62,270 nucleotides of DNA, from assembly GCA_039698055.1 (NCBI GenBank), contig JBDKTL010000031.1, positions 1-62,270 of the forward strand, in the 5' to 3' direction. Shown piece by piece: positions 22,034 to 36,259 of this stretch. Made by a program: the position numbers and the translations under genes. Numbering within the stretch: position 1 is the stretch's first letter; every line of letters starts with the position of its first letter. The notes beneath the pieces were generated by a model. The model was not told where the DNA came from and searched no databases. It was given only the letters and a program-made list of their open reading frames with translations. The stretch is from Methanoregula sp. (GTDB lineage Archaea > Halobacteriota > Methanomicrobia > Methanomicrobiales > Methanospirillaceae).

Positions 22034-22068
22034 GAAAAAAAAATAATTTAGTAACCGGGTAGTACCGG

Positions 22069-23025
22069 TTATTTCTTTTGTTTCTCGTAATACGTGCAGA
22101 ACGAACCACAGCGGGTGCAGCCCTCTTTGCAGGGCTCAATATGGATCGTGATATGTGCGCGGGGGAACTCGATCAGAAGATCCGATTCGAGGTGATCGGC
22201 TAAATCATGGGACTGGTTCACCGATATCGTCCCTGATACAACCAAGTGGAATTCGATAAAGATATCCGGGCCGGACCGTCGTGTCCGAAGGCCGTGGAAC
22301 CCTGCATAATCGCCTGAATGCTCGCAGATGACCTGTTTTATCCGGTTGACCTGTTCAGGGGGAATACTATGGTCGATAAGATCGGCAAGAGATCGCCTTG
22401 TGAGGTCATACGCGGCTTTCATGATGACAATGGCGACACCTATTGCAAAAAGGGAATCAAGGCTGGCGATACCGGTGATCCGGATCAAGATCAGGCCGGC
22501 AAAAACACCCAGCGAAGTATAGACATCAGTCCGCAGGTGCCATGCATCGCTTTCAAGCGCGATGGACTCGGTTTCCTTTGCCACTTTCATCAGCCGCGAA
22601 GAGACATACCAGTTGGCAAGCGCCGATATCCCCATCACCACGATACCGGCAAAAAGCAGCGTTGGTGAGAATGGTTCCGAAGCTTCACCGAGCAGTTTTT
22701 TTGTCGCTTCCGTGATAATCAGGATTGCTGCAACAAAGATCAGGATCGCTTCGATGAATCCAGAGAAATCCTCAAATTTACCGTGCCCGAACGAATGGCC
22801 GGCATCGGGTGGTTCTGCGGATTTTCTCACCGAAAAAAATGCGATGATGGCAGCGAGGAGATCCATGGACGAGTGGATCGCTTCGGAAATGATACTCACC
22901 GATCCGATGGCAAACCCGACGACGAATTTCATTCCGACAAGCCCGGTATTGGAAATAATAGACAGGCGTGCGGTTTTTTGTTTTAAAATATCAAGGGATT
23001 GTTTATCCCGTGGGCCGGTATCCAT
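22069..23025 (-). CDS. Cation diffusion facilitator (FieF-like) transporter
   Basis: EAIHSSMD, HSFGHGKFE, SDAWHLRTD, HIEP; Cys-rich tail CKEGCTRCGSFC. Confidence 0.92.
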   Translation of the reverse strand: MDTGPRDKQSLDILKQKTARLSIISNTGLVGMKFVVGFAIGSVSIISEAIHSSMDLLAAIIAFFSVRKSAEPPDAGHSFGHGKFEDFSGFIEAILIFVAAILIITEATKKLLGEASEPFSPTLLFAGIVVMGISALANWYVSSRLMKVAKETESIALESDAWHLRTDVYTSLGVFAGLILIRITGIASLDSLFAIGVAIVIMKAAYDLTRRSLADLIDHSIPPEQVNRIKQVICEHSGDYAGFHGLRTRRSGPDIFIEFHLVVSGTISVNQSHDLADHLESDLLIEFPRAHITIHIEPCKEGCTRCGSFCTYYEKQKK

Positions 23026-23085
23026 GGTGTCCTGTGTATACGTGGATGGCGGGGAACTTCAAGATATTGTCAAAAAAAATGGGTA

Positions 23086-23454
23086 TTAATGGTCTTTTTT
23101 CCCGTACACGGTTTCCGGATCAAAAATCTTCTCATCGATCACGTCCCCGTCCAGTGTCCGGTAAAAACAGGTACGGTATCCCATGTGACATGCAGCACCC
23201 AGCTGTTCGACTTCATAGATAAGACAGTCTTCATCGCAATCGGCAAGGACCCGGATCACCTTCTGGAAATGACCGCTCTCTTCACCTTTCTTCCAGAGTT
23301 TTTTCCGGCTCCGGCTGTAATAGTGGGCATATCCGGTCTCCTGTGTCAGCCTGACTGCCTCTTCGTTTGCATATGCCATCATCAGCACCAGCCGGTTTTT
23401 TTCATCCTGCACAATTACCGGGATCAACCCGTCAGCAAATTTCAGGTTCAGCAT
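23086..23454 (-). CDS. hisI: Phosphoribosyl-AMP cyclohydrolase
   Basis: [32 protein letters not shown]. Confidence 0.96.
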
Positions 23455-23464
23455 CGGTTACACC

Positions 23465-24610
23465 TCACACAATCGCATTCATGATCGCAAGCAAAAAATC
23501 CCCAAAGATAATCGACGTGACAAGCCCGGCAGTAATGGGGATGATAAACGGCACCGCATACGAGATCCACACAGTTCCTGCTTTTTTATACATTGCAAGT
23601 TCCCGGGGGAATTCTTCCGGGTGTTCTCGCAAGTCCTTTGTATACATCCGGCCCTCCCCGGAATACATTCTCCGCAGGGAATCGAAAAATCCGATGAACT
23701 TTCGGCTGACGGTGCCGTTTTTCTCGACAAAGTCCTCCATGACAAAACCCCATGAATCCTGTATTTTTTCGCCTCGTACCGGGAACCCAAAGAACATGTA
23801 GGGCAGCGGCGCACGGTTGCCTTTGACGATATTGGTAACAAAAATACCCACAGGGGCGACAAGGTTGAGGATCAGGGCGTTGATCAGTGCCGAGAACGAC
23901 AAAAAGCCCAGCGGGGGGTTGTTCAGGATTGGCGTAAAGGGAAATGTCGGGATACAGAACGCAATAAAGATGAGCGCCCACGCGTCAGCGCCACCAAAGA
24001 GGTGCATCCGCCCGAACAGGTAAAACACGCCACAGAATACTGCCGCCAGTGGGATGTAGATGCCCTGCAATCCCCAGCCGCCTTCAAACATCATGTAGAA
24101 TGATGCGATGGCAAAGATGACCACAATGAGCATAAAGTACCATCGGCTCAGCGTGTCGCTGATATTTGCCTGCTGTGCCTTTTTTTTCTGCTTCGTTGTC
24201 TGCACACGCGACTTTTTGTATTCCTCATAGGTGATGTAGGCAAGAACCCCGGCAAACATGCCGTACCAGGGCACAAGCGAGATACTGACCGTCTTAGCAA
24301 GGACAAACCAGGAAAGTGCCGGCAGAACCAGTACGGCAGCAAGATAGTGGAATTTGATCGGATCGGTGTCTTCGCGGGAATCAAGGTAGTTGGCGTAGAA
24401 GAACGCCGCAACCAGGGCAAGGTAACCCACAACAAGGCTGAGGTTGGTGGTGGTATCGTACAACAACCATATCGTTGAGGGTATGCCAATAATGAGCATT
24501 GGTATCCACGTCCGGAACGGTACACGCCGGTCTCTGATATCAAGATATGATGCATAGACCAAGGTGACAAGGACAGCCACCGCGGAAATGATCATCGGGT
24601 AAAGAATCAT
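23465..24610 (-). CDS. flaK: Preflagellin/prepilin peptidase (A24, FlaK/PibD-type)
   Basis: Catalytic YASYLDIRDR and FGGADA motifs; C-terminal VWISYAVPFIIPITAG. Confidence 0.88.
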   Translation of the reverse strand: MILYPMIISAVAVLVTLVYASYLDIRDRRVPFRTWIPMLIIGIPSTIWLLYDTTTNLSLVVGYLALVAAFFYANYLDSREDTDPIKFHYLAAVLVLPALSWFVLAKTVSISLVPWYGMFAGVLAYITYEEYKKSRVQTTKQKKKAQQANISDTLSRWYFMLIVVIFAIASFYMMFEGGWGLQGIYIPLAAVFCGVFYLFGRMHLFGGADAWALIFIAFCIPTFPFTPILNNPPLGFLSFSALINALILNLVAPVGIFVTNIVKGNRAPLPYMFFGFPVRGEKIQDSWGFVMEDFVEKNGTVSRKFIGFFDSLRRMYSGEGRMYTKDLREHPEEFPRELAMYKKAGTVWISYAVPFIIPITAGLVTSIIFGDFLLAIMNAIV

Positions 24611-24873
24611 ACTCCCTATACCCTTTTTTCTGATAGGTCTTATGTATGGCGATAGACCCGGATGCTGGTGATGTGCGGATTACTACCTGATTACACCGGT
24701 AAACAAGCCGGAATCTGTAAATATCTGCATGTATAAATATCCGGAATTGTTACACGCTATTTCAGTAATATATAATATCTTCCCTACAAATACTTCATTT
24801 GACAACCGGTGCCCATCCCAACAGGAATAGTAACCGCACAAAAAATATCTGCGCAAATCGAGGTGATTTTTTT

Positions 24874-25485
24874 ATGAACATATCGGAGCTGCTGGAAACA
24901 ATCCTGAAAGGATCAAAATATCTTGGCACCTTTCCGCTTGCCGAGCTGCTCCAGTTTGCTGCCAGCCGGAGTATCAACGGGTTAGCGGTTGCAAAAGATC
25001 CCCCCCGGGAGAGGTACCTTGCATTTATCAACGGTGAACCCGAAGGCGCAATTTATATCGATTCCAGCGGGACACTCTATGGTGACAAGGCGATCATGCT
25101 GATCGGGGGGGCTGAACAGTTCGTTCTCTGCGATGTGAAACCCGACATTATCGATGCGCTTGTCATGAGCTGCCGGGTCTTCGAAAAATCGCATCTCAGG
25201 CAGAGCACGACCTATATTGTCCCCGAGATTGGCGTACAACGTGCGGGAATCGGGGTGCTGACGATTTCCCTCCGTCGTGAGAATTCCCCGCTGAATGGTG
25301 TCCGGGTATCTATCAGGAAAAACGGCCAGATCGTCGGAAGCGATAGTACCACGGGTACAGGGTCGGTAAGTTTCCGTGTATTACACGGAATGTACACCTG
25401 CATGGTGCAGGATCGATCCCAGACGGTGACTAATTTCCAGATCACGTTTGACGAAATGCACCCTCAGATCACCCTTGACCTTTGA
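24874..25485 (+). CDS. DUF2226/PATAN-like N-terminal domain + beta-sandwich (carboxypeptidase-regulatory-like) C-terminal domain
   Basis: GAGGTGA RBS before ATG 24874; pattern LLQFAASRSINGL...AFINGEPEGAIY...YGDKA; C-terminal PLNGVRVSI...TTGTGSVSF...GMYTC. Confidence 0.6.
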   Translation: MNISELLETILKGSKYLGTFPLAELLQFAASRSINGLAVAKDPPRERYLAFINGEPEGAIYIDSSGTLYGDKAIMLIGGAEQFVLCDVKPDIIDALVMSCRVFEKSHLRQSTTYIVPEIGVQRAGIGVLTISLRRENSPLNGVRVSIRKNGQIVGSDSTTGTGSVSFRVLHGMYTCMVQDRSQTVTNFQITFDEMHPQITLDL

Positions 25486-25590
25486 CAGTAAAAAAGTCCG
25501 GGCTGCTCAATCGTTATCCCCGAATTCCTGGTCATCCCGATAAAAACAAAGACGAAATCCTTTAATTAGATCGGAGCAGATTTATCGCTT

Positions 25591-26700
25591 ATGAAGATCG
25601 GACGTGAGGATTTTGAAGCGCTGATCAAGGGTGAAAAGACTATCACACCCTATCTGGAACTTGATCCGGTTTTGGGATCATATTCCGTCTTTGGGGTAAA
25701 AACCGCAAGCAACCCGAACTATATGATCAAGGCTGTGTACGAAATGTACGAAGCCAACCTGAACCGGAAGCTTTCGGTAAAGGCAATGCGCAAACTGTAC
25801 CGCTCGGTTGGTTTAGGCTCCCTTGGCCTGTATAACCTGCTCAAAAAATTCGGGATGGACTTAAAACCTGCTGAATTTCTCATGCTCGTTTTCAAACTCC
25901 AGCACCAGCAGGGTTGGGGGGCACCGTTTGAACTTGTCGAAGCAGGCGAAAAGAAAATTATCCTCCGTACCGCCCACACTTTTGAGTCCGAGGTAATGAA
26001 GGACTGGAAAATGTCGGTCTGCGGTATTCATATGGGCTGGATAGAGGGGGTGCTCATGGCGGTTACCGGAAAGTCATGGTACTGTCTTGAAACCAAATGT
26101 TTTGCAAACGGTGATGACTGCTGCGAATTTGTTGCCGATCAGGTTGAACCGAGCTGGAAATATAAAGCTCAGGCGATCGTGAACGGGGATTCCGCTATCA
26201 CCGAGTTTATTGAGCACAAACCGCTTGACGGGACCATCAAGCTCATCGACGACCCTGTTGTCATCATGCCCAGGTTTGTTTTTTCCTCCATGATGAACTC
26301 GTTGAAAAAGACGATGGGGGAACTGCCCGCCGGAGGAGTGAACTACCGTGCCTATATGGATCTTGGGAAGGAAAATGTCGAACATTACAAAAAAATGGGG
26401 ATAACCAACCCCAATACGCTGGCAAATATGGCGTTTACGTTCTACTCCCAGATGGGCTGGTTCAAGATTATCAAGATGGAGTGGGACGAAGCCACAAAGA
26501 CAAAAACCCTGACCCTTGAACACACGGTTGAATCCGACGCCTTTGGCAGTACGGGGAAAAATGTCTGTTACTGCACGGCAGGGCTCCTTGCCGGAATTGT
26601 CGAAGGTGCGTTTGGGATAAAAGTTCAGGGCCGCGAGATTGCGTGCAGATCGAAAGGAAACGAGTTCTGTGTCTTTACCATCACGAATAAAAAAGAATAA
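25591..26700 (+). CDS. Tandem V4R (4-vinyl reductase) domain protein
   Basis: Two V4R motifs: CGIHMGWIEG...ETKCFANGDDCCEF and CYCTAGLLAG...EIACRSKGNEFCVF. Confidence 0.85.
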   Translation: MKIGREDFEALIKGEKTITPYLELDPVLGSYSVFGVKTASNPNYMIKAVYEMYEANLNRKLSVKAMRKLYRSVGLGSLGLYNLLKKFGMDLKPAEFLMLVFKLQHQQGWGAPFELVEAGEKKIILRTAHTFESEVMKDWKMSVCGIHMGWIEGVLMAVTGKSWYCLETKCFANGDDCCEFVADQVEPSWKYKAQAIVNGDSAITEFIEHKPLDGTIKLIDDPVVIMPRFVFSSMMNSLKKTMGELPAGGVNYRAYMDLGKENVEHYKKMGITNPNTLANMAFTFYSQMGWFKIIKMEWDEATKTKTLTLEHTVESDAFGSTGKNVCYCTAGLLAGIVEGAFGIKVQGREIACRSKGNEFCVFTITNKKE

Positions 26701-26787
26701 ACAAAAATCTGGGCGTAAATTCATAACCTCTATATTAAATAGCATTACCTCTATATCTTTACCAGAAATATCGCCGAGTGTTTAGCA

Positions 26788-27578
26788 TGGCTCCCGCAGT
26801 TCAGGTCCTGATTGTTGAAGACGATGAAATTATTTCAGGTTTGATAGCTGTCATGCTGGAAAAAAAAGGCTACCATGTGGCAGGGAAAGTGATTACCGGC
26901 GAAGATGCCATCATGAGGGCAGCTGAAACAGTCCCGGATATTGTCCTCATGGATATCAATCTCGCAGGTACTCTTGACGGAATTGCTGCTGCCCGGTATA
27001 TTTTCTCATTCTTCCGTATCCCTATCATTTTCCTTACCGGCCAGTGTGACGACGATGTTCTCAACCGGGCAAAAATTGCTGAACCCTATGGATTCATTCT
27101 CAAACCCTTTACGGCAAACGATCTCACCTCCAATATCGAGATCGCGCTGTATAACCACAATATCCGGAAAAAATATTTCGATAAGTTTGCCACGCTGGAT
27201 CTCAAAAAGATCATGCCGGCGCTTGAAGCTGTTATGGTTGCCGATATTAAAGGCCGGGTCATTTTTTTCAATCCCTATACGCTGCGGCTTCTTGATGTGA
27301 ACGAACCGGATGTGCTGATGAAATTCCTCCGGCACGTCCTGATTCTTGTAAATAAATTGACCGGCGAACGGATTCCTGACCCGGCACTCGACGTGATCAG
27401 GGAGATGATCGTGATCAATTACGAGTTAAATACCGTTCTTGTGACGAAAACCAATAAAAAGCGGTATGTCGGTGTCACTGCGCGCCCGATGAAGAACGAG
27501 AATAATGAGCTGCTGGGTATCTACGTGCATGTGCGGGAAAAAACCCTTAACGAGATAAAAATGGCCTCACGGACCTGA
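26788..27578 (+). CDS. Response regulator (REC + PAS)
   Basis: LIVEDD, DIVLMDI (phospho-Asp), FLTG, ILKPF, followed by a PAS-like domain. Alternative GTG start at 26778 in the ORF track. Confidence 0.88.
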
Positions 27579-27637
27579 TGGGAATAATATTTCAGATACG
27601 GGGAAAAGGAAAATAAAAAATATCGGCAATACCTGAA

Positions 27638-28432
27638 TTATCTTTCTGATTTCTTCTTGAACAGGGCTTTTGTAAACCGGTCGATAAATCCTTCTTTTGC
27701 CTGAACGGTCTGCTCTTCTTTATAGGAAACACCGATAAGATCGGATGCAATATGGCGGATTGCCTTTGATGCCGGGGAATCCGGATACTTGATGACAATC
27801 GGGGTTTTTGCTGACGCCGCTCTCCGGACGTTTGTATCTTCGGGGATGATTCCTATTACTTTTACCCCAAGAACCTTTTCCATCTTTTTGGTGATGATGT
27901 CGGTTTTATCCTGATCGACACGGTTGATGATCGAGCCCAGCACATGCCCGCCCACAACTTCGGTGAGGATTTTTGTTTTCAGGGCATCGACGATGGATGA
28001 AAGTTCCGGGTTGACCACTAAGATCACTTCATCGGCAACGGCAAGAGGAACAACCCCGTCTTTGCTGATTCCTGCAGGAGCATCGATGAGTAAAAATTCA
28101 CACCGTTTGATAATCTCGGACATTACATCGCGGATCTTATCCGGATCTGCCTGCTGGAATCCCTGCAGCGAGATCCCGCTGGGTATGACTTTGAGTCCTG
28201 CCGGGCCTTCGTAGATCGCATCGTTTATGTTGCCTTTTCCCGCGAGAATTTCATGCAGGGTGACCGGGGCATCCTGCAATCCAAGGATCAAACCGACATT
28301 TGCCATGCCGATATCGGCGTCCATGAGATAGGTTTCCTTTCCCAATTGGGCAAGCATCGTCCCGAGATTGACAGAAACGGTGGTTTTACCCGTACCTCCT
28401 TTGCCCGAAGCGATTGTATAAACCTTAACCAT
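27638..28432 (-). CDS. minD: MinD family ATPase
   Basis: Deviant Walker A SGKGGTGKTT, DADIGMAN, IDAPAG, IINRV, IPED; C-terminal amphipathic GFIDRFTKALFKK. Confidence 0.93.
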   Translation of the reverse strand: MVKVYTIASGKGGTGKTTVSVNLGTMLAQLGKETYLMDADIGMANVGLILGLQDAPVTLHEILAGKGNINDAIYEGPAGLKVIPSGISLQGFQQADPDKIRDVMSEIIKRCEFLLIDAPAGISKDGVVPLAVADEVILVVNPELSSIVDALKTKILTEVVGGHVLGSIINRVDQDKTDIITKKMEKVLGVKVIGIIPEDTNVRRAASAKTPIVIKYPDSPASKAIRHIASDLIGVSYKEEQTVQAKEGFIDRFTKALFKKKSER

Positions 28433-28518
28433 CGAACACCCGTGGTGAATGTATCATTCCTGATTTAATATAAGGCTAATGAATTTTTTTTATAATGTGG
28501 TTCGTTCTTATATTCGTG

Positions 28519-29079
28519 TTATATCCACCAGTTTAAAATATCTTTTGTATCGTCTTTTATCTGCCGCTCCATTTCGCTGCCAATGACCGTTTTAATCCTG
28601 ACGCTGCCAACAATCGTGGATCCCTTATGGTCGATGCGAAAGATAAAGACACCTGGAATCTTCGTCCGCGGGTCAGTAGTGACTATCTGGGAGAACGTGG
28701 CCGCATCACTGGAGGCACCCGCATCGCGGGAGGAGGCAAGCAGGAGTCCATCCGTGGTTGCCAGGGTTATCTGATCGACATGATATTTTTTTGCAAGGGT
28801 ATCCAGGCTCTGGGAGATCGTGGTTTTACCTGTCAGGAAATCGATATTGGCGGGTTCCGGCATAATGGGGGTTATGCGCACCGGTATGTGAGAGAATGCA
28901 GGTTCGCTTCCGTTCGGGATCGTTGTTTTGTGATAATGATCCAGCCGCTGTTTCATCTGTTCGGCAAGCGTAATCGTCTGCATGATCCGGGTTTTATTGG
29001 CATGATACCGTTTGACGACCAGCCATGCGGCAATTCCGGCAATGATAATTGCGAGGGCAACTGCCGGCAGCAGGATCAT
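28519..29079 (-). CDS. Membrane-anchored protein with degenerate Roadblock/LC7-like C-terminal domain
   Basis: N-terminal TM helix; SLDTLAKKYHVDQITLATTDGLLLASS resembles the roadblock helix-strand-DG motif. Confidence 0.55.
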   Translation of the reverse strand: MILLPAVALAIIIAGIAAWLVVKRYHANKTRIMQTITLAEQMKQRLDHYHKTTIPNGSEPAFSHIPVRITPIMPEPANIDFLTGKTTISQSLDTLAKKYHVDQITLATTDGLLLASSRDAGASSDAATFSQIVTTDPRTKIPGVFIFRIDHKGSTIVGSVRIKTVIGSEMERQIKDDTKDILNWWI

Positions 29080-29132
29080 ATCAGTATCTACAAAAGCAAA
29101 ACCAATGATTATTCCTCCCGTATTATCCGTGA

Positions 29133-29879
29133 TTATTTTCGTTCCATCAGGTGATCGAGATGGAGTTGTTTGACCATGGTCCTGCAGTCATTACGGATCT
29201 TATCGGTAACACTGCTGATATCCATCGTATCGAACGTGTCAATATCCTTTTCAAAACTGCTCGTTTCCGGTTTTACCTTGTCCTCCTCTTCTTCCGGAAT
29301 GGCTTTTGGGGGCTCTTTGGGATGCACGGTCACCGTTTCGGACGCAAAGCCTGCCTGGTGCCTGGCCGGTTTCAGATCGCCGGGTCGTATTGCTGACGGT
29401 GTCGGATCAGGGACAGACTGGTTAACGACCGGGCGGGAATGTTCTCCTGGCGTCGCATGTACCGGGGCAACACGGGCTGTATGAACAGGTGCAGGCACCT
29501 TCTCTACCGTCTGGTGAACGATATGCGGCGCAGGTTCAGCAGGTTTCTGGTGTACCGGGGCGGCCTTACCGGTTTTAATAATCCGTGCAGCCTTGTTGAA
29601 TTCAAGGGCGAGCTGGAGCTGTGCTTCGTCAAGTGTTGAGAGTGCCGCATCAACATCCTGGTCTGGCATTTGTCCCAGTTCATCGTATGCCGCATCGCCC
29701 GCGAAATGTGCATATTTTGCAAGAATGCATTTTCCCGACTTCATCACGAGTGTTGAGATAGATTCATCGAATGATATGCTGCAGATGCCGGAGAATCTGC
29801 TGCGCCCGAGCTCTTCAAGAAGGTCACCGAGTTTCTGGCCTTTTTTGATTTCGCGGAATGTTCCACGCGGGAGTTGCAT
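29133..29879 (-). CDS. DUF2226-like protein with Pro-rich disordered linker and conserved C-terminal helix
   Basis: MQLPRG start; FSGICSI...MKSGKCILA...GDAAYDEL; QLQLALEFN; acidic/Pro linker; tail MVKQLHLDHL. Confidence 0.7.
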   Translation of the reverse strand: MQLPRGTFREIKKGQKLGDLLEELGRSRFSGICSISFDESISTLVMKSGKCILAKYAHFAGDAAYDELGQMPDQDVDAALSTLDEAQLQLALEFNKAARIIKTGKAAPVHQKPAEPAPHIVHQTVEKVPAPVHTARVAPVHATPGEHSRPVVNQSVPDPTPSAIRPGDLKPARHQAGFASETVTVHPKEPPKAIPEEEEDKVKPETSSFEKDIDTFDTMDISSVTDKIRNDCRTMVKQLHLDHLMERK

Positions 29880-30122
29880 TATATGTTTAGTGATGTGTTT
29901 TCACCTATATAGTTTCTTTTTAACGATGCGGGTGAAAAGGTGCTGCCGGGGCCTTTATCCGGGAAATTTCTTTTTTGCCCGTTTTATTGTGAAAATAAAT
30001 TGCACTGATATTGAAGCGTCTTTTTTCATCAAGGCCATTATTCATGCAGGAAACCGCATAACAAAGCCCAACCTTTTAATATAGAAAGAAACAGAGAGAT
30101 ACATTTATTAAGTGGTGTCAAA

Positions 30123-30470
30123 ATGCTGAAGCCGTTATTGGAAGAATTCCTGAAAGTGGAAGGGGTATCAGCTGCAGTTGTTGTCGGAAGAGATGGATTT
30201 GTGATTGAGAGTGCCGTAGCGGGGAAAGTGGATATCGAGGCACTGGGTGCAATGGCTTCGACGGGTCTTGGAACTTCAGAAGCAATGGGATCCACTCTGG
30301 GCAAAGGAGAACTTGCACAGATGCTTGTTGAACTGGAAAAAGGATCTATTATTCTTGCGCCGCTTTCGGCTGACGAGTTGATCGCTCTTGTTGCAGATTC
30401 GACTGCTAACGTCGGAAGAATACGTTATGAATTAAAAAAGAATAAAGAACGTATCATAGCGGCTCTTTAA
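30123..30470 (+). CDS. Roadblock/LC7 (MglB-like) protein
   Basis: VEGVSAAVVVGRDGFVIES, EALGAM, LVELEKG, ANVGRIRYE. Confidence 0.92.
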   Translation: MLKPLLEEFLKVEGVSAAVVVGRDGFVIESAVAGKVDIEALGAMASTGLGTSEAMGSTLGKGELAQMLVELEKGSIILAPLSADELIALVADSTANVGRIRYELKKNKERIIAAL

Positions 30471-30487
30471 TTCAAACAAGTTTTTTT

Positions 30488-31213
30488 ATGAAATTGCCGG
30501 CAGGAACTGATGGCGGCGTCATCACAAACCTTCAGGATGAAGGTTTGATCCGTTACCTGATGACGCTCCGTGGGGCGATAGAGATCGATACCGCAGATGG
30601 CCATGGGTTTCTTCTCACTGACCGGGGGAATCTTGCCGCGGCGTTTTTTGCCGACCCCCGTGCAACCTACCGGGGAAAGATGGCTCTTGAGTATCTCATG
30701 GGCGATGCAAATAAAACCGGCATGCCCCGGCAGACGTTCTGCCTGAAAAATTATACTGAGGCGGAATTTGAAGAGGCACTGGCACAGTGCACGCAGGGGC
30801 ATCTTCTGCTCACCCTTCAGGAGCCAGGAGACAATGAGCAGGCCGGGCAATCGCCTGCGCACACGGTTCACGCCCCCGTATCGTTCGATGAAGCAATCCT
30901 GCAAAAAATACTCTCACAGCCCGGTATCATTGCCGCGTCTGCATTTTTTGAAGGATTCCCGGTCCTGTCGCGAGGGGATGCGGATTTTGAGCATATCGCT
31001 GCGCTGGCAGAAGATCTTATGCGGGCAGGGACACGGATCGCAAAAGAAATGAGCTTCGGAGATCCCAACCAGCTGATCCTTGAAACAGAAAACAACAAGA
31101 TCATTATCGCTCCCTGCGGGGACCTGTTCCTTTGTATTGTGGCAACAGCCGATGCACAGCTTGGACTCATCCGTGTCCTCTTAAAGAGCATCCAGATGGA
31201 GATGGGCACATGA
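30488..31213 (+). CDS. DUF2226-like domain fused to Roadblock/LC7 domain
   Basis: N-terminal MKLPAG...LRGAIEI...GFLLTDRGNLAAAF...RGKMAL; C-terminal ILSQPGIIAASAFFEG...LILETENNKIII...AQLGLIR. Confidence 0.75.
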   Translation: MKLPAGTDGGVITNLQDEGLIRYLMTLRGAIEIDTADGHGFLLTDRGNLAAAFFADPRATYRGKMALEYLMGDANKTGMPRQTFCLKNYTEAEFEEALAQCTQGHLLLTLQEPGDNEQAGQSPAHTVHAPVSFDEAILQKILSQPGIIAASAFFEGFPVLSRGDADFEHIAALAEDLMRAGTRIAKEMSFGDPNQLILETENNKIIIAPCGDLFLCIVATADAQLGLIRVLLKSIQMEMGT

Positions 31214-31358
31214 ATTTTATTGCAGCAGGTGAGCGTTTTTTCCGGTCATTGTCGCCCAGGCAGGGATTCACAAGAGAGAATAGATATAGTCGAATACAAA
31301 AGGATATTTCATGTGATCACGGGGAACCGGGTTTCCCCGTAAAAGGGTGGTGTAAGGG

Positions 31359-33773
31359 TTGAACGAAAAAGGAGAAGAACCGGATAATGAATTGAGTGAC
31401 CTCCTCAAAAGAATCGGCGGGCAAAAAAAGGACGAGCCTGATCCTGAAAAAGAGAATTCTGACAAGGAAAAAATGCCCGTCAGCCCGGGCGAGTCGGGAA
31501 GTGCCGGTAGTTTTTCTGCACTCATGAAACGGCTGGGGATGGAAAAAACAGAAGGGACGCCCCGGGAAACCACCGCTCCTGCACCATCCCCGGAATCTGC
31601 GACACCTCCCGCGGATGCAGCCCAGCCAGTCCCGGATTTTGACGATCTCCTCGAAGATACCACTCCAGAACCACTCTTGGAAAAAGGGACGGATCTTTCA
31701 GGCCGGGATGTCCGGCTGGCACTTGAAAAGATCCTTGAGAAACCCGGATCATCACCCGCTCCTGATTCGCAACCGGCCGTTGCAGAAAAAATACCCACCT
31801 CCCCGGTAGAACCTTTGCAGGAACCGGAACCTGTTGTTGAAATTATCGATGAAGACCCGCGAAAACGACGTGGGTTCTTTTCAGCAAAACCGGCAAAGCC
31901 AATACAGGATTCCGGAACCACCCTTAACACAGCCACCGATGAGCGGATCATCAGTGTCGACCAGTTGTCCGGTTTGTCCGGGCTCATTCTCCCCAAAGGC
32001 GCCACCTTCAGAATTGATGAACTGAAACTGCACGGGCGCGTCAGTGCTTTCGAGAGTACGGGAGCCGGCACCCTGCCCCCGGAGATGGCAGAGATCTGGA
32101 AACGCGAATTTTCCAGCATCGGTTTTAAAGATCTCGATATCGATTCTGAGTTCGGGCTCGATCAGGAAAAAACAAAGATTGCGCCGGTCAAAAAATTCGG
32201 GCTTGCGGCCCTTTTCAAGGCAATACGTTCCGAAGTGGAGCAGTACAATCCAAAAGTGCATGGCCCGCTTGTCGATCTTTCCTTTGAAGCCCATCCCGGC
32301 ATCGAAGAAATGGAGATGTACCCGGTCAACGATCCTTATGCCTACATACGGGTTATTTATGACCACTCCACCCATGAATACACGTATCAGGTTATCGAAC
32401 CGGTTCTCACCGAACCGGAAAAGGAGTTGTTAAAAGAGCTTAAAGAGCGTCTTTTTGAAACGCTTGACATCAATACAAAAGACATCTCAAAAGAGGAAGC
32501 CAGCCGGCAGCTGCGGGTCGCTACGAATGACATTTTAGCCGATTATGGATTGAAACTCAGCCCGGTCCAGACAGAGAAGATCCTGTACAACATGCACAAG
32601 GAATTTCTTGGCGACGGTTTGATCGATGCGATCATGCACGATAAATATATCGAGGATATTTCCTGCGATGGTGTGAACAGCCCCATCTTTGCATTCCACG
32701 CGAGCTATGAATCGATGAAAACCACGCTGATGTACCATAATGCTGAAGAGCTGGACTCTTTTGTCACAAAACTTGCCCAGCGTTCGGGCAAATACATCTC
32801 GATTGCTGAGCCGATCCTCGATGCAACCATGAGCGACGGGTCCCGTATCCAGATGACACTTGGGCAGGAAGTCACGGCTCACGGGTCAACATTTACTATC
32901 CGTAAATTCAAGGATGAACCGATCACTCCCACGGATCTTATCGAATGGCACACGTTTGCCCCGCTGTCTATTGCCTACATCTGGCTTGCCGTGGAAAACG
33001 GGAAGTCTGCTATTTTTGCCGGGGGGACTGCGTCCGGTAAGACGACCGCACTGAATGCAATTTCATTGTTCATTCCCCCGATGTCGAAGATTGTCAGTCT
33101 TGAAGATACCCGTGAAGTGAAGCTTCCGCACCCCAACTGGATCCCCAGTGTCACCCGTGACTCGTTTGATACTGCCGGCAGAGGAGAGATCAACATGTAC
33201 GAGCTCCTCCGTGCCGCAATGCGACAGCGTCCTGAGTATATTATCGTGGGTGAAGTCCGTGGCAAGGAATGCCAGACCCTGTTCCAGGCAATGAGTACCG
33301 GCCATATTACCTATTCAACGATCCACGCAGATTCGGTATCCAGCGTCGTGCACCGTATTGAAAACCCGCCGATGGATGTCCCGCGGAACATGTTATCCGC
33401 CCTGGATTTTGTCTGTATCCAGGTGCAGGCGCGTGTGGGGGGAAAACGGATCCGCAGGAACAAACAGATTATCGAGATTCTCGATATAGATCCCCGGACA
33501 AACGAGTTAATCACGAACGAAGTCTTCAAATGGCGTTCGGCTACCGACGAGATCACCTATTCCGGGAAATCATATCTCCTTGAAGAGATTATGGAAGCCC
33601 GCGGGTGGAGCGAGAACCGTATGCGCGAGGAGCTCAAGCGCCGGCAGGAAGTCCTTGAATGGATGCGGATCAAGAAGATCCGGCACTACAAGGATGTTGC
33701 AAAGATCCTCATCTCCTATTACCGGGAACCTGAAGTGGTTGTAGAACGCGTAAGGAAAGATCTCTATGAATAG
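31359..33773 (+). CDS. Type II/IV secretion (type IV pilus) assembly ATPase with long N-terminal extension
   Basis: IEDISCDG, GSRIQ, GSTFTIRKF, Walker A GGTASGKTT, EDTRE, RQRPEYIIVGEVRG, His-box STGH...STIHA. Confidence 0.95.
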   Translation: MNEKGEEPDNELSDLLKRIGGQKKDEPDPEKENSDKEKMPVSPGESGSAGSFSALMKRLGMEKTEGTPRETTAPAPSPESATPPADAAQPVPDFDDLLEDTTPEPLLEKGTDLSGRDVRLALEKILEKPGSSPAPDSQPAVAEKIPTSPVEPLQEPEPVVEIIDEDPRKRRGFFSAKPAKPIQDSGTTLNTATDERIISVDQLSGLSGLILPKGATFRIDELKLHGRVSAFESTGAGTLPPEMAEIWKREFSSIGFKDLDIDSEFGLDQEKTKIAPVKKFGLAALFKAIRSEVEQYNPKVHGPLVDLSFEAHPGIEEMEMYPVNDPYAYIRVIYDHSTHEYTYQVIEPVLTEPEKELLKELKERLFETLDINTKDISKEEASRQLRVATNDILADYGLKLSPVQTEKILYNMHKEFLGDGLIDAIMHDKYIEDISCDGVNSPIFAFHASYESMKTTLMYHNAEELDSFVTKLAQRSGKYISIAEPILDATMSDGSRIQMTLGQEVTAHGSTFTIRKFKDEPITPTDLIEWHTFAPLSIAYIWLAVENGKSAIFAGGTASGKTTALNAISLFIPPMSKIVSLEDTREVKLPHPNWIPSVTRDSFDTAGRGEINMYELLRAAMRQRPEYIIVGEVRGKECQTLFQAMSTGHITYSTIHADSVSSVVHRIENPPMDVPRNMLSALDFVCIQVQARVGGKRIRRNKQIIEILDIDPRTNELITNEVFKWRSATDEITYSGKSYLLEEIMEARGWSENRMREELKRRQEVLEWMRIKKIRHYKDVAKILISYYREPEVVVERVRKDLYE

Positions 33774-34689
33774 TTACGAACGGTTCTGTTTCAACCTTCT
33801 GGGTATGCGCATGAAGGGAAAGCGGGAACAGTATGCCCAGCTGAGAAATGATCTGATTTCGGCACGGTTGAAGACACCGTTTGAAGTCTATATCTCCACC
33901 GCATTTGTCAGCTCCATTCTTGTCGGGCTGGTTTCAGCGGTGTTCCTTGGTTTTATTACCTGGATACTCAAACTTCCCGCGTTGATCAAATACAGGGGCG
34001 AAGTCCCGGAAGCGTTCCTGGTTCTTGCGCAGAACAGCCTTCTCCTTGGCACGATCTTTGTCGTTCTTTTTTCACTTCTTGTGTTTGGAGGGATCACGTA
34101 CGCAATTTTTATTGTCTACCCGAGTGTCGTTGCCGGCAACCGGCGCCGCAATATCGATGCGACCCTTCCCTATGCAATTAACTATATCACGGCAATGTCA
34201 ACGTCAGGAATCACTCCGGCAGAAGTGTTCCGCCAGTTAGGGGACAGCCCGATCTATGGTGAGAGCTCTGTGGAAGCCCGGTACATCTCCCGGGAGATTG
34301 ATATTTTCGGCAGGGATCTTATCGATGCGCTCAGGATCGTGTCTGCGAGCACACCCAGCCTCCGGCTCAAGGAATTTTTACAGGGGTCGATGGCGAGCAT
34401 TTCAAGTGGGGGGAACCTGACCGATTATTTCCGCACAAAAGCTGACCAGTATGCCCTCGAGAACCGGCAGACGCAGAAGATGTTCCTTGACACATTAGCG
34501 CTGATTGCGGAATCCTATGTCACGGCAATGGTAGCAGGCACCCTGTTCATGATCATCCTGCAATCCATTATGTCCGTCCTTGGCGGGGATTCAAAGCCGA
34601 TGTTCCTGTACCTGATCATCTACCTGATGATTCCGTTTGGCACGATGATGTTTGTGATCATGATCAGTTCCATGACACCGGAGTCCTAA
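33766..34689 (+). CDS. Type II secretion system F family membrane platform protein (TadB/TadC-like)
   Basis: RRRNIDATLPYAINY, IFGRDLIDAL, TPSLRLKEFL, LALIAESYV; overlaps the ATPase stop codon. Confidence 0.9.
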   Translation: MNSYERFCFNLLGMRMKGKREQYAQLRNDLISARLKTPFEVYISTAFVSSILVGLVSAVFLGFITWILKLPALIKYRGEVPEAFLVLAQNSLLLGTIFVVLFSLLVFGGITYAIFIVYPSVVAGNRRRNIDATLPYAINYITAMSTSGITPAEVFRQLGDSPIYGESSVEARYISREIDIFGRDLIDALRIVSASTPSLRLKEFLQGSMASISSGGNLTDYFRTKADQYALENRQTQKMFLDTLALIAESYVTAMVAGTLFMIILQSIMSVLGGDSKPMFLYLIIYLMIPFGTMMFVIMISSMTPES

Positions 34690-34691
34690 CT

Positions 34692-35729
34692 ATGGCAATA
34701 AAGGATAAAATCACGGGCCTGCTTGGACACAAAACAGCGCCGCTCCCCCCGCTTACCCGTGGGGAGATAGAAACGGTTGAAGAAGAACTTAACGAGATTA
34801 CCGTTAAACTGGAGCGTGAGCGCAAGAGCCGCGAGGGCCTCGGGAAGTTTTTCAAGCACCCGTTCCAGGTGCTTACCGAGAAACCAGAGCATATTCTGAT
34901 TGTCTGCCTCCCGCTATCGCTCATTATCTTCATCGGCGGTTTTATTTCGATGGTCCAATCGTATGGTATCCAGGTGCTTTTCAATTCTACGGTGATAGAT
35001 GATTTTGCCGTTTTGGCCGTGCTGGTTTCGATTATTCCTCTTGCCCTGCTAGATTTTAAGGAGCAGAACCGTGTCCACAACCTTGAAGATGCACTCCCAA
35101 ACTTTTTCCGCGACCTTGCCGGTATGAATGATTCCGGCATGACGCTCCCCAATGCCGTTCACCTTGTTGCCGGCGCGGAGTACGGGACACTCACGCCCCA
35201 TATCCGGAAGCTTGACAACGAGATGTCATGGGGTGTCGGGTTTGTCGAGGCGATGTACCGGTTCGGGAAAAACCTTGGCACGCCGATGGCTGACCGGAGT
35301 GTCGACCTGATCGCAAAAGCAAGTAAAGCCGGTGGCGACGTGAGTGAGGTGCTACGGGCAGCAGCGCGGGATACCTTTGAAGTGGTGAACCTTGCCCAGG
35401 AGCGCCGGAATAACATGTTCATTTACGTGATCATTGTTATCGTCTCGTTTGGCGTGTTCCTGTTTGTGATTGCCATCCTTGTGAGCACGTTTTTGACGAC
35501 CATGGCAACGGCAGGTATTGCAGCTTCGGCATCCGGTGCCGGGAGCCAGTTCATGGGGAGGATCGATCTCCCGGCGTATAAACGGTTGTTTGCGCATGCA
35601 GCAATGATCCAGGGATTCTTTTCCGGATTATGCGCCGGCCAGATGGGTGAAGGAAGAGTTGTTGCCGGCCTGAAATATTCGGCGATGATGCTCATCATAT
35701 CGTGGGTCACGTTCCGGTTCTTCATCTGA
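34692..35729 (+). CDS. Type II secretion system F family membrane platform protein (TadC-like)
   Basis: LEDALPNFFRDLA, SGMTL, YGTLT, AGGDVSEVL, GQMGEG...GLKY. Confidence 0.9.
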   Translation: MAIKDKITGLLGHKTAPLPPLTRGEIETVEEELNEITVKLERERKSREGLGKFFKHPFQVLTEKPEHILIVCLPLSLIIFIGGFISMVQSYGIQVLFNSTVIDDFAVLAVLVSIIPLALLDFKEQNRVHNLEDALPNFFRDLAGMNDSGMTLPNAVHLVAGAEYGTLTPHIRKLDNEMSWGVGFVEAMYRFGKNLGTPMADRSVDLIAKASKAGGDVSEVLRAAARDTFEVVNLAQERRNNMFIYVIIVIVSFGVFLFVIAILVSTFLTTMATAGIAASASGAGSQFMGRIDLPAYKRLFAHAAMIQGFFSGLCAGQMGEGRVVAGLKYSAMMLIISWVTFRFFI

Positions 35730-35730
35730 A

Positions 35731-35752
35731 CTTTTTTCCCGGATTTTTTTTT
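35731..35752 (+). terminator. T-tract terminator of the pilus operon
   Basis: CTTTTTTCCCGGATTTTTTTTT directly after the TGA at 35729. Confidence 0.5.
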
Positions 35753-35953
35753 GACTACATCCACTCAAATTAACGGTACTTAACTACAATTTTGCCGTCA
35801 ATCCTGTTTTGAATATCCCCGCGTTAAACGAAAAAAAATGCGGGGCAGAGGGACGCACGTATCCAATACGCTATGCTGCACGAAAAATCCCCCGCCTTCG
35901 GGAACCAAAAAAAGATAAAAAATTAACCCAAAATGAAGAGGTTACATCATATA

Positions 35954-36259
35954 TCAGGAAATATTCTCGGTATTGTAACCTTTCATAGAGAGCAGGGCTT
36001 TCACCCGATCACGGTGATTCCCCTGCAGCTCAATTGAGGTGCCTTTTACCGTCCCGCCACAGGCAAGTTTCCCTTTCAGGAATTTGGAAAGGTCTTCAAG
36101 ATCAATATCTGTTGGATCAAGGCCTTCAATAACCGTTACTTCTTTCCCGTACCGGCGTTTGTTGACTTTGACATTGATCCTCTGCTGTTCCTTTGCTACT
36201 TCCTCACAGATACATAGTTCGTTAGGAAGTCCACACGTCGGGCAAATGCCACCAATCAT
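35954..36259 (-). CDS. sui1: Translation initiation factor aIF-1 (SUI1)
   Basis: [41 protein letters not shown]. Confidence 0.95.

Follow-up and report, generated by a model that had tools for sequence, protein, structure and literature searches.

A PilB3-like type IV pilus assembly locus of Methanoregula with MinD, Roadblock-fold and PATAN-like genes

Introduction

The gene for TadZ/CpaE lies within a Tad pilus locus, and its product positions the machine; TadZ carries an N-terminal receiver-like domain. Haloferax MinD4 positions the motility machinery, as described in a bioRxiv preprint (10.1101/2020.04.03.021790). The euryarchaeal “clade 2” type IV pilus (T4P) systems delineated by Makarova, Koonin and Albers (2016, PMC4858521) include the PilB3/PilC3 adhesion-pilus system of Haloferax volcanii, and many of their loci carry two tadC-like genes. 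According to the same paper, clade 2 systems should be served by a FleN/MinD ATPase, and Roadblock arCOG02603 occurs in archaeal T4P loci, so that archaeal pilus loci had already been connected with genes for MinD and Roadblock proteins. The words PATAN, DUF2226 and V4R are absent from its main text. In Myxococcus, T4P polarity is among the outputs of MglA/MglB, and PATAN-like proteins are encoded beside bacterial MglB homologues (PMC4316618, the latter citing Makarova 2006); in that paper, Wuichet and Sogaard-Andersen also describe a “group 4 MglA” that is nearly restricted to methanogens and lacks conserved neighbours. In Synechocystis, PATAN-domain regulators bind the T4P motor (bioRxiv 10.1101/2021.06.11.447907).

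The locus described here resembles the PilB3/PilC3 system, as outlined in the main text of PMC4858521, in its FlaI/VirB11-family ATPase with PilB3-type terminal domains, its TadC-like genes (two of them, as in clade 2) and its lack of a pilin gene, pilins being encoded in trans. Unlike that system, it encodes MinD, three Roadblock-fold domains, three DUF2226/PATAN-like domains, a V4R protein and a REC-PAS protein, and its ATPase is extended at the N-terminus by about 190 variable, low-complexity residues. With the MglA/MglB switch of Myxococcus and Thermus it shares Roadblock-fold proteins, here structurally near MglB, and PATAN-like neighbours, but it has no MglA gene, and the MglA-like GTPase of the genome is unlinked. 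As with the cyanobacterial PATAN-REC proteins (PixG, PixE, PatA type), a PATAN-fold protein goes with a T4P assembly ATPase: here the two genes are constantly adjacent, and for the cyanobacterial proteins the preprint reports measured binding to PilB1 (10.1101/2021.06.11.447907). The archaeal domains differ in being sub-threshold for PatA_N/DUF4388 in Pfam, in fitting DUF2226 better by structure, and in being joined, in place of REC, to a β-sandwich, a Roadblock domain or a disordered tail. [quoted passage not shown]

We propose, with moderate confidence in the explanation as a whole, that the locus encodes a pilin-less euryarchaeal T4P assembly motor of the PilB3 kind, and that two cassettes inserted into this locus in Methanoregulaceae would steer pilus assembly. 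It is probable that the Roadblock, PATAN-like and MinD proteins have a part in determining the site or the timing of pilus assembly.

Results and discussion

Layout of the locus

All 12 genes named in a preliminary description of the window (the whole stretch of 62,270 nucleotides that was analyzed, from a Methanoregula-like genome) were found where it had placed them, between positions 23465 and 35729 (Table 1), and in the divergent operons that it had reported. A comparison across the order Methanomicrobiales (151 genomes) divides the locus into three units. M1 comprises the peptidase gene and, divergent from it, PATAN_A–ATPase–TadC1–TadC2; M2 is Rbl–PATAN_Rbl; and M3 is PATAN_B–(TMRbl)–MinD, where TMRbl denotes a predicted membrane Roadblock-fold protein. 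MinD and the pilus ATPase are the sole NTPases encoded in the locus. MinD, PATAN_B, Rbl, PATAN_Rbl, the ATPase and both TadC genes occur in all 51 full-length Methanoregulaceae loci. Metatranscriptome contigs of at least 99% identity, from one study in which DNA carry-over is possible, span most of the locus and bridge MinD–TMRbl–PATAN_B, Rbl–PATAN_Rbl and PATAN_Rbl–ATPase. M2 is probably cotranscribed with the ATPase gene in Methanoregulaceae.

Table 1. Genes of the locus, with positions in the window and the matches or models on which each assignment is based
Gene product	Position	Strand	Matches or models
Prepilin (class III signal) peptidase, archaeal	23465..24610	-	Arc_PepC_II, Peptidase_A24
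PATAN_A	24874..25485	+	DUF2226/PATAN-like N-domain + CarboxypepD_reg-like beta-sandwich
Double V4R protein	25591..26700	+	V4R
REC-PAS response regulator	26778..27578	+	Response_reg + PAS_9
Archaeal MinD	27638..28432	-	TIGR01969
TMRbl, predicted membrane-anchored Roadblock-fold protein	28519..29079	-	AF2 model, Foldseek
PATAN_B	29133..29879	-	DUF2226/PATAN-like N-domain; profile + structure matches
Rbl, stand-alone Roadblock/LC7 protein	30123..30470	+	Robl_LC7
PATAN_Rbl, DUF2226/PATAN-like N-domain fused to Roadblock domain	30488..31213	+	Robl_LC7 (C-terminus)
PilB3-like T4P assembly ATPase	31359..33773	+	T2SSE, PilB3_C
TadC/FlaJ-like platform protein 1 (TadC1)	33766..34689	+	T2SSF
TadC/FlaJ-like platform protein 2 (TadC2)	34692..35729	+	T2SSF

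The pilus motor

Profile matches bear out a prepilin peptidase, a secretion ATPase and two platform genes, as had been described. The peptidase scored 83 bits against Arc_PepC_II and 26.2 bits against Peptidase_A24, slightly below the cut-off of 26.5; hisI lies 10 bp downstream of its gene, which also adjoins hisI and pilus genes in relatives' loci. The ATPase matches T2SSE (107 bits) and PilB3_C (30.4 bits; cut-off 27). Its TTG start is uncertain, its orthologues range from 751 to 1124 aa, and conservation begins at about residue 195. The machine had been described as a pilus other than the archaellum, in agreement with an ATPase score against the FlaI model of 412 bits, below the cut-off of 550, and with an archaellum locus on a different contig of the genome. 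TadC1 (T2SSF, 50.6 bits) has partial ArlJ and UpsF matches, and the first 8 bp of its gene are shared with the end of the ATPase gene; TadC2 scored 65 bits against T2SSF.

M1 is intact in 27/27 relatives' loci with an ATPase orthologue. PATAN_A accompanies the ATPase in every one of these. In 16 of them it immediately precedes the ATPase gene in the same orientation, and in one (L018) its stop overlaps the start of that gene by a few bases; the association also occurs in two genomes outside the order. Judged by gene content and order, PATAN_A is a constant partner gene of the ATPase. It is a single-copy gene present in 119 of the 151 genomes, and it occurs without PATAN_Rbl in several of them (G076, G119, G053, G111, G131, G019, G039 and G057, and 8/8 genomes of g14); therefore, the motor does not need M2.

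The DUF2226/PATAN-like N-domains

The N-terminal pattern that the genes starting at 24874, 29879 (minus strand) and 30488 had been said to share is real but weak. Pairwise identity among the three N-domains is 16 to 22%, and the profile–profile probabilities for the three families are 94% (PATAN_B against PATAN_Rbl in hhalign, E = 1.2e-7), 68% (PATAN_A against PATAN_Rbl, E = 4.9e-5) and 50%. Among 84 family members, 19 matched DUF4388 with E ≤ 1, the best at 7.6e-4; PATAN_A itself gave E = 0.024 for DUF4388 and 0.075 for CarboxypepD_reg. Residues 1–102 of PATAN_B (Atlas model) superimpose on DUF2226 models with TM scores of 0.94, 0.79 and 0.77 and on PatA_N models with 0.68 to 0.72. In the family alignment, these residues are followed by a proline-rich variable linker and then a conserved C-terminal helix (L-x-L-D-H-L). 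From their fold and weak profile matches, all three N-domains can tentatively be assigned to PATAN.

The Roadblock proteins

Of three Roadblock-like domains proposed, two were recovered by Pfam (30123 and the C-terminus of 30488) and the third (28519) by fold only. Rbl matches Robl_LC7 with 59.6 bits and is very strongly conserved, with 69 to 94% identity across the order and a mean column identity of 82% (loci aligned, Methanoregulaceae included); it lies immediately upstream of PATAN_Rbl in 33 loci. The C-terminus of PATAN_Rbl, a protein present in 106/151 genomes, matches the same profile with 36.7 bits, and in the AF2 model (pLDDT 87.8) this domain resembles solved structures of Asgard Roadblock proteins, LAMTOR and MglB (E of about 1e-7). 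TMRbl has no Pfam match and no profile match to Rbl or PATAN_Rbl. Its AF2 model (pLDDT 86.7) shows a transmembrane helix (residues 3–46) and then a domain at residues 88–185 with the topology α-β-β-α-β-β-α; the model's best PDB matches are MglB 6hjm (Foldseek E = 7.6e-4) and other Roadblock proteins. The modelled fold hints that TMRbl may be a Roadblock protein. Its gene adjoins MinD in 19 loci.

MinD and the MglA-like GTPase

MinD, a plain single-domain protein of 264 aa, scored 325 bits against TIGR01969 (cut-off 201.75). Of six matches in the genome, it alone exceeds the cut-off, and it is the sole archaeal-type MinD; against the CpaE model it reached 38.6 bits (E = 6.6e-10), far below cut-off. 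Both the deviant Walker A motif GKGGTGKT and a C-terminal amphipathic tail, F-[IV]-[DE]-R-...-LF, are kept in 26/26 orthologues. The genome also carries archaellins and CheW (archaellum locus, chemotaxis genes), and with only one archaeal-type MinD available, other cargoes of this protein are therefore possible.

The preliminary description had noted, correctly, that the window contains no small GTPase, and had suggested that MinD takes the place of MglA. A search of the genome found a 170-aa small GTPase elsewhere (G000 C24:91426-91935, minus strand). Among solved structures, MglA proteins match it best (3t12, E = 4.6e-6), and a T-P-G-Q motif takes the position that D-x-x-G has in other GTPases. 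Since this protein could be a Roadblock partner, the Roadblock proteins might instead be classical MglB-type partners (GAP or GEF-like) of the unlinked GTPase, with MinD an unrelated neighbour. The occurrence of the GTPase in most M2-bearing genomes of the order, and the largely methanogen-restricted group 4 MglA of PMC4316618 with its lack of conserved neighbours, fit this alternative. We nevertheless regard it as improbable: ten genomes with PATAN_Rbl (G003, G009, G015, G021, G033, G089, G051, G079, G104 and G121) have no GTPase match at E ≤ 1e-10, three Methanoregulaceae genomes that hold the cluster (G081, G139 and G127) have only weak matches, to ORFs of 437–610 aa, and the GTPase gene was found in none of 40 loci (L004–L043; local BLAST set). 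The idea of MinD in place of MglA is weakened by the GTPase and favoured by the ten module-bearing genomes that had no match to it. This idea and that of a module dedicated to the pilus are only partly supported, because an unlinked GTPase, an archaellum locus and chemotaxis genes are present.

Linkage across families

In 60 of the 103 genomes with both markers (PATAN_A and PATAN_Rbl; counts collated by hand), no more than 8 kb separate M2 from M1. For three families and some of a fourth, the pilus locus includes the Roadblock, PATAN and MinD genes, with two gene orders: the operons are divergent in Methanoregulaceae (f1), and all genes are co-oriented in f2 and f3, running into the ATPase gene, with the cassette genes between Rbl and PATAN_A–ATPase. 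That linkage is kept in two different orders argues for selection on it. In f5, M2 adjoins M1 in none of 28 genomes with both markers, and the two are not adjacent in 10 of 24 f4 genomes; where these share a contig (nine genomes), they are 0.9 to 1.6 Mb apart. The module is therefore not co-located with the ATPase and platform genes in every genome. A dedicated pilus module is favoured by the constant company of PATAN_A and the ATPase and by linkage in three families and some of a fourth, and is weakened by the distant M2 and M3 elsewhere and the other cargoes that MinD may have.

M3, perhaps with M2, could alternatively be a general archaeal MinD partner cassette that organises the envelope or several machines (archaellum, chemoreceptor arrays, division or shape proteins), its place in the pilus locus of some families reflecting shared regulation or history. 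We consider this possible, if somewhat unlikely. The single archaeal-type MinD, the archaellin and CheW genes, and the joint position of M3 and M2 about 1 Mb from M1 in f5 and four f4 genera are in line with such a role, as is the action of Haloferax MinD4 on the archaellum and chemosensory arrays described in the preprint (10.1101/2020.04.03.021790). On the other hand, linkage to the pilus locus is retained in both arrangements, and the f2 and f3 cassettes run in one direction with the ATPase gene. Furthermore, PATAN_A, PATAN_Rbl, the MinD orthologue and the ATPase orthologue were all not found in the 21 genomes searched of the genus g20, so that motor and cassette markers are missing together, probably through a single loss event; the MglA-like GTPase was not found there either.

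Directly upstream of Rbl in f2 to f5 lie V4R-like, MvhG-like and MvhA-like genes, on the same strand and separated by no more than about 10 bp, and in f5 and four f4 genera M2 comes after this Mvh-type hydrogenase operon. The nickel-site motifs R-I-C-G-I-C and D-P-C-I-S-C are retained in the large subunit, which has MvhA among its best solved relatives and is encoded by the sole MvhA-type gene in 5/5 genomes checked. These observations would suit Rbl and PATAN_Rbl serving the hydrogenase or energy metabolism (e.g. in regulation, maturation or placement), with the Methanoregulaceae pair as a remnant. This is very unlikely in our estimation, as the 69 to 94% identity of Rbl in the aligned loci extends to Methanoregulaceae, which has no hydrogenase pair at that position, both genes persist in every full-length locus of that family, and pilus or MinD genes lie downstream of the pair in f1, f2, f3 and part of f4.

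A possible mechanism and the sensor genes

According to the explanation that we prefer, the conserved cytoplasmic cassettes M3 and M2, together with lineage-specific sensors, would have been inserted into the motor locus in Methanoregulaceae. ATP-bound MinD dimers would attach to the membrane via the amphipathic tail, and TMRbl and PATAN_B, as candidate MinD partners, may set or read its nucleotide state, by analogy with MinE acting on MinD and MglB on MglA. The Roadblock pair and PATAN_A would be adaptors through which this cue in space or time reaches the ATPase, perhaps by way of its long variable N-terminal region; pilus assembly would then occur at a particular site or moment.

Redox, small-molecule or phosphorylation signals could be supplied by the V4R and REC-PAS proteins, and in the other families, the V4R-like protein and the Mvh-type hydrogenase operon may occupy the same input position. 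Both sensors had been named in the preliminary description, and profile matches confirm them. The V4R protein matches V4R (80 bits) in two stretches and, partially, the V4R of MsvR (66 bits), making it a candidate small-molecule or redox sensor; it had no match in f2 to f5 loci and is present, in Methanoregulaceae only, in 48/51 full-length loci. The REC-PAS protein (Response_reg, 71 bits; PAS_9, 31.9 bits) is encoded by a variable accessory gene, found in 25 of the 51 Methanoregulaceae loci.

Gene content of the locus and its pilus motor

Open reading frame listing and family scans bore out the genes that the preliminary description had placed between 23,465 and 35,729, and the evidence for each is listed in the table below. 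The locus comprises three units: M1, the prepilin peptidase together with PATAN_A, the pilus ATPase, and the platform genes TadC1 and TadC2; M2, the stand-alone Roadblock gene Rbl and PATAN_Rbl, in which a PATAN-like domain is fused to a Roadblock domain; and M3, PATAN_B, the putative membrane-anchored Roadblock-fold protein TMRbl, and MinD. The peptidase gene (-) is divergent from the PATAN_A, V4R, and REC-PAS genes (+), with which PATAN_B-TMRbl-MinD (-) is convergent; PATAN_B (-) is in turn divergent from the run Rbl-PATAN_Rbl-ATPase-TadC1-TadC2 (+). Housekeeping genes (hisI, a cation-efflux gene, SUI1, and cobQ) flank the locus.

Genes of the pilus locus, their positions in the window, and the family evidence for each
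Feature	Coordinates	Strand	Evidence
Prepilin peptidase	23465-24610	-	Arc_PepC_II 83 bits (cut-off 29.9); Peptidase_A24, the catalytic part, 26.2 bits, marginally under its cut-off of 26.5
PATAN_A	24874-25485	+	Weak DUF4388 and CarboxypepD_reg matches
Double V4R protein	25591-26700	+	V4R 80 bits
REC-PAS protein	26778-27578	+	Family scan
MinD	27638-28432	-	TIGR01969 325.1 bits (cut-off 201.75)
TMRbl (186 aa)	28519-29079	-	No Pfam match; fold from AF2 model
PATAN_B	29133-29879	-	No Pfam match
Rbl	30123-30470	+	Robl_LC7 59.6 bits (cut-off 23)
PATAN_Rbl	30488-31213	+	C-terminal Robl_LC7 36.7 bits (cut-off 23)
PilB3-like ATPase	31359-33773	+	T2SSE 107.2 bits (cut-off 24.9); PilB3_C 30.4 bits (cut-off 27); PilB3_N 20.3 bits, under its cut-off of 27
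TadC1	33766-34689	+	T2SSF 50.6 bits (cut-off 25.2)
TadC2	34692-35729	+	T2SSF 65 bits (cut-off 25.2)

The possibility that the ATPase drives the archaellum was considered and rejected, because it scores 411.9 bits with the FlaI equivalog model (cut-off 550) and because, of the five T2SSE matches in the genome, another one shares a separate contig (C27) with the archaellin genes. The motor is thus of a non-archaellum pilus type, as had been proposed. Candidate pilin genes for this motor were found elsewhere in the genome: eight Pilin_N matches exceed the cut-off, on contigs C27, C48, and C49, and none lies within the window. Class_IIIsignal (PF04021) matches nothing in the genome. Loci of the PilB3 type that lack pilin genes and have two tadC genes have already been described (PMC4858521). 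The motor at this locus is an ordinary archaeal pilus motor, and the accessory gene set surrounding it is real and conserved, and experimentally untouched.

Two proteins of the locus vary in length among relatives. The ATPase has an N-terminal extension of ~190 residues (31359-31940) of low complexity, rich in proline, glutamate, and serine; its length varies, the orthologues measuring 751-1124 aa overall, and the TTG start is uncertain. The peptidase (-) is longer than that of most relatives outside the genus by ~100 residues (roughly 50-156), and its tblastn matches are split at this site in two genera of Methanoregulaceae (g2 and g6) and in families f3-f5 of the order.

Roadblock and PATAN-like domains

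Both Rbl and the C terminus of PATAN_Rbl score above the Roadblock/LC7 (PF03259) cut-off. In the AF2 model of PATAN_Rbl (pLDDT 87.8), a disordered linker (residues 111-130) separates the N-domain from a C-domain that resembles solved structures of Asgard Roadblock, LAMTOR, and MglB proteins (E about 1e-7); searched as a whole against the PDB, the model has Roadblock proteins only among the matches listed. The AF2 model of TMRbl (pLDDT 86.7) shows a long N-terminal helix followed by an α-β-β-α-β-β-α domain, and in the PDB it most resembles MglB and other Roadblock proteins (E 7.6e-4 to 1e-2). The TMRbl family has no profile similarity to the Rbl and PATAN_Rbl families (hhalign 0.2% and 1.6%) and TMRbl has no Pfam match, so its Roadblock reading derives from the model. 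Hence, two of the three Roadblock-like domains originally named are recognized at the level of sequence families, whereas the third is a candidate by predicted fold. Basic residues after the hydrophobic helix suggest that the TMRbl domain would lie on the cytoplasmic side.

Other Roadblock genes occur outside the cluster. A third Roadblock/LC7 gene of the genome lies on contig C14 (L044:5275-7042) and is followed by two REC-MetOD2 response regulators. Two genomes of family f5 (G090 and G046) encode a second, diverged PATAN-Roadblock fusion (L035 and L037, 29-30% identical) in another genomic context, with the other cluster genes absent within 20 kb.

The N-domains of PATAN_A, PATAN_B, and PATAN_Rbl share 16-22% pairwise identity. 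Profile-profile comparison of family alignments, built from orthologues in relatives, connected them: hhalign gave 94% (E 1.2e-7) for PATAN_B and PATAN_Rbl, 68% (E 4.9e-5) for PATAN_A and PATAN_Rbl, and 50% (E 1.7e-4) for PATAN_A and PATAN_B. Among 84 members of the three families, 19 matched DUF4388 at E ≤ 1 (best 7.6e-4) and one matched DUF2226 (E 0.032); the Pfam gathering cut-offs for PatA_N (PF14332, DUF4388) and DUF2226 (PF09987) were not reached, PATAN_A scoring 15.1 bits against 25. For the Atlas model of PATAN_B residues 1-102, superposition gave TM scores of 0.94, 0.79, and 0.77 with models aligned over DUF2226 and of 0.68-0.72 with PatA_N models; one matched Atlas cluster carries the automatic name "DUF2226/Roadblock/LC7 domain-containing protein." For PATAN_A residues 1-115, an Atlas feature search gave values of 0.82-0.84, which are leads only (<0.9). 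The N-terminal pattern first noticed in these three proteins is real but weak, and the label "DUF2226/PATAN-like" therefore holds at the level of predicted fold but not at Pfam threshold. The fold match is direct for PATAN_B, to which the PATAN_A and PATAN_Rbl N-domains are tied only through hhalign.

MinD

The MinD of the locus is a single-domain protein of 264 aa and the only one of six ParA/MinD-type matches in the genome to exceed the archaeal MinD cut-off. The deviant Walker A motif GKGGTGKT and a conserved C-terminal amphipathic tail are kept in 26/26 orthologues. TadZ is a ParA/MinD ATPase with an N-terminal receiver-like domain; in contrast to TadZ/CpaE of bacterial Tad pili, the MinD studied here lacks such a domain and scores 38.6 bits with CpaE_hom_Actino (cut-off 154.45). 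We know of no partner protein for any archaeal MinD. CheW domains are present in the genome.

Conservation and gene order across Methanomicrobiales

A search of 151 genomes of the order Methanomicrobiales recovered PATAN_Rbl in 106 (23/29 in Methanoregulaceae, f1; 17/20 in f2; 12/12 in f3; 24/30 in f4; 29/30 in f5; and 0/29 in f6), and PATAN_A, in single copy, in 119. All window proteins were mapped onto 35 loci of 20 kb around PATAN_Rbl, from 33 genomes, and onto five loci around the ATPase orthologue. M1 takes the form hisI-peptidase and PATAN_A-ATPase-TadC1-TadC2, often with SUI1 and cobQ after it. PATAN_A is present in every one of the 27 loci that contain the ATPase orthologue, and in 16 of these (f2-f5) it immediately precedes the ATPase in the same orientation. 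Rbl, which is 69-94% identical across the order, occurs in 33/35 PATAN_Rbl loci, always as the gene immediately before PATAN_Rbl; no Rbl was detected in the two loci with second PATAN_Rbl copies (L035 and L037). In f2 and f3 the mapping recovered no TMRbl, and a diverged PATAN_B-like ORF directly precedes MinD.

The arrangement of the three units differs between families. Methanoregulaceae have the arrangement of the window. The order in f2 and f3 is peptidase, V4R-like gene, hydrogenase small and large subunit genes, and Rbl-PATAN_Rbl-PATAN_B-MinD-PATAN_A-ATPase-TadC1-TadC2, with all genes from the V4R-like gene on pointing in one direction. Part of f4 has Rbl-PATAN_Rbl-PATAN_A-ATPase. M1 is separate in f5 and four f4 genera, where M3, the hydrogenase genes, and M2 stand together.

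For the 103 genomes with both markers, distances between PATAN_A and PATAN_Rbl were collated by hand. The two genes are less than 8 kb apart in 60 genomes (f1, 21/24; f2, 14/15; f3, 11/12; f4, 14/24; f5, 0/28), on one contig at 0.88-1.6 Mb in nine, and on different contigs in 34. Proximity of the two genes is thus kept in most genomes of f1-f3 and in part of f4, but it fails throughout f5 and in 10/24 genomes of f4. PATAN_Rbl without a PATAN_A match was seen in three fragmented genomes (G093 and G098, 62% complete; G122, 93% complete in 260 contigs), and PATAN_A without PATAN_Rbl in G076, G119, G053, G111, G131, G019, G039, G057, and all eight genomes of genus g14. None of the 21 genomes searched of genus g20 yielded PATAN_A, PATAN_Rbl, an MglA-like GTPase, or an orthologue of MinD or the ATPase; their best MinD matches are 27-33% identical, and their best ATPase matches 39-47% identical, compared with 53-76% for orthologues.

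A second set consisted of 51 full-length Methanoregulaceae loci, of 80 returned, all from close Methanoregula-like relatives. MinD, PATAN_B, Rbl, PATAN_Rbl, the ATPase, and both TadC proteins are each present in 51/51, the peptidase and PATAN_A in 50/51, the double V4R protein in 48/51, and the REC-PAS protein in 25/51. TMRbl, a fast-evolving protein, was detected in 36/51 (tblastn, 1e-5).

Outside the order, among 301 genomes of the phylum, two genomes, both of family f16, were the only ones in which the PATAN_A profile aligned along most of its length. Both encode a PATAN_A-like protein (441 or 528 aa) directly before an ATPase-TadC1-TadC2 run, and the neighbors scanned include no MinD or Roadblock gene. 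In these loci (L046:9378-10964(+) and L047:9370-10695(-)), the stop codon of the PATAN_A-like gene adjoins the start codon of the ATPase, which is shorter here (613-633 aa); it looks as if the variable ATPase extension belongs to the upstream PATAN_A-like protein.

Hydrogenase genes upstream of the Roadblock pair

In families f2-f5, a gene for a 187-aa V4R/ATC_hydrolase-like protein and genes for the small and large subunits of an Mvh-type NiFe hydrogenase lie immediately upstream of Rbl-PATAN_Rbl on the same strand (L016:10754-13643(-) and L025:10696-13551(-); same place in L013, L019, L020, and L022). The subunits belong to the Oxidored_q6 (small) and NiFeSe_Hases (large) families, and the closest solved relatives of the large subunit are a bifurcating NiFe hydrogenase and MvhA. 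The reading that this hydrogenase is a degenerate sensor was considered and rejected because the nickel-site motifs of the large subunit are intact and its gene is the only MvhA-type gene in all five genomes checked.

The 187-aa protein has a subthreshold match to ATC_hydrolase, a family related to V4R and HNOB domains (Galperin and co-authors, PMC5847659). The genome of the window has no orthologue, the best match being 33% identical, and descent of the double V4R protein from the 187-aa protein, or the reverse, is unsupported (BLASTP E 0.044). Among the literature matches listed for Roadblock proteins and hydrogenases in methanogens, none looked relevant by title or the start of the abstract. 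In other Methanomicrobiales the Roadblock pair is linked in an operon with an Mvh-type hydrogenase, a hint that surface behavior may be coupled to hydrogen supply; if true, this would be relevant to syntrophic methanogens.

An MglA-like GTPase elsewhere in the genome

No small GTPase was found in the window, as had been stated at the outset, but the genome does encode one. This 170-aa MglA-like protein adjoins EF-2 on contig C24 (91426-91935(-); L045:4424-4936), and among solved structures it is closest to MglA proteins (E 4.6e-6). It has T-P-G-Q instead of the D-x-x-G motif and is not linked to any Roadblock gene, and it is consistent with the "group 4 MglA" of methanogens, reported to be without conserved neighbors (PMC4316618). 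The locus therefore differs from the MglA/MglB polarity module, as the cognate GTPase gene is not encoded with the Roadblock protein.

Clear orthologues of the GTPase occur in most genomes with M2. Three cluster-bearing Methanoregulaceae genomes have weak matches only, and no match was found in 10 PATAN_Rbl-bearing genomes (genera g12, g16, g18, and g24) or in the g20 genomes searched. For the proposal that MinD takes the place of MglA, the 10 genomes speak in favor and the gene on C24 against, and the proposal is neither shown nor excluded.

Possible functions of the accessory genes

Gene identities, folds, and the patterns of conservation and linkage are matters of observation, and the functional links proposed from them are of unequal strength. 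Given their constant adjacency and the cyanobacterial precedent, we infer that PATAN_A works with the pilus ATPase; a complex prediction with ATPase residues 195-804 and PATAN_A (score 0.01, mark 0.32) speaks neither for nor against binding. Constant adjacency likewise makes TMRbl and PATAN_B candidate partners of MinD. The weakest step is that M2 and M3 would regulate this particular pilus, because in f5 and part of f4 they are no longer linked to M1, because this MinD is the sole archaeal-type MinD in the genome, and because archaellum and chemotaxis genes exist. The mechanism originally envisaged, a dedicated positioning or switching module, is supported in part.

To our knowledge, nothing has been established on the placement or switching of archaeal adhesion pili. 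It is conceivable, though in our judgment unlikely, that the locus forms a GTPase-free polarity or timing system, in which a MinD switch would be read by Roadblock-fold and PATAN-like proteins, with TMRbl and PATAN_B as MinD partners, PATAN_A and the Roadblock pair docking the cue on the ATPase, and a hydrogen or redox input. Such an input would enter through the Mvh-type hydrogenase and the V4R-like protein in most families and through the double V4R protein in Methanoregulaceae; if so, pilus assembly would track energy supply.

According to Makarova, Koonin, and Albers (2016, PMC4858521), no regulators are more abundant at archaeal type IV pilus loci than FleN/MinD ATPases (arCOG00589), and these loci often encode Roadblock proteins (arCOG02603) as well. 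The words PATAN, DUF2226, and V4R are absent from the main text of that article, and literature searched with the term "DUF2226" yielded no mention. The locus parallels the bacterial MglA/MglB and PATAN-PilB1 systems, and it supplies conserved candidates, namely two proteins always beside MinD and one PATAN-like protein always beside the pilus ATPase. Questions on MinD partners and pilus-ATPase binding thereby become open to ordinary biochemistry.

Expression and other genes of the window

Metatranscriptome contigs with at least 99% identity cover 25-28 of 30 bins of window positions 22000-37000; the four runs behind them represent two samples of a single study. Bins without cover in some runs include, for example, parts of 23002-24504. 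Single RNA contigs bridge MinD-TMRbl-PATAN_B, Rbl-PATAN_Rbl, PATAN_Rbl-ATPase, V4R-REC-PAS, and TadC1-TadC2; DNA carry-over is possible, and a bridging contig is not proof of a single transcript.

Two other window genes may be mentioned. A 655-aa protein that has both a PIN domain and a partial ATPase domain of the T2SSE type is encoded at 10694-12661(-), ~19 kb upstream of the pilus ATPase, and a 914-aa DUF3821 and NosD/β-helix protein, probably a surface protein, at 2162-4906(-).
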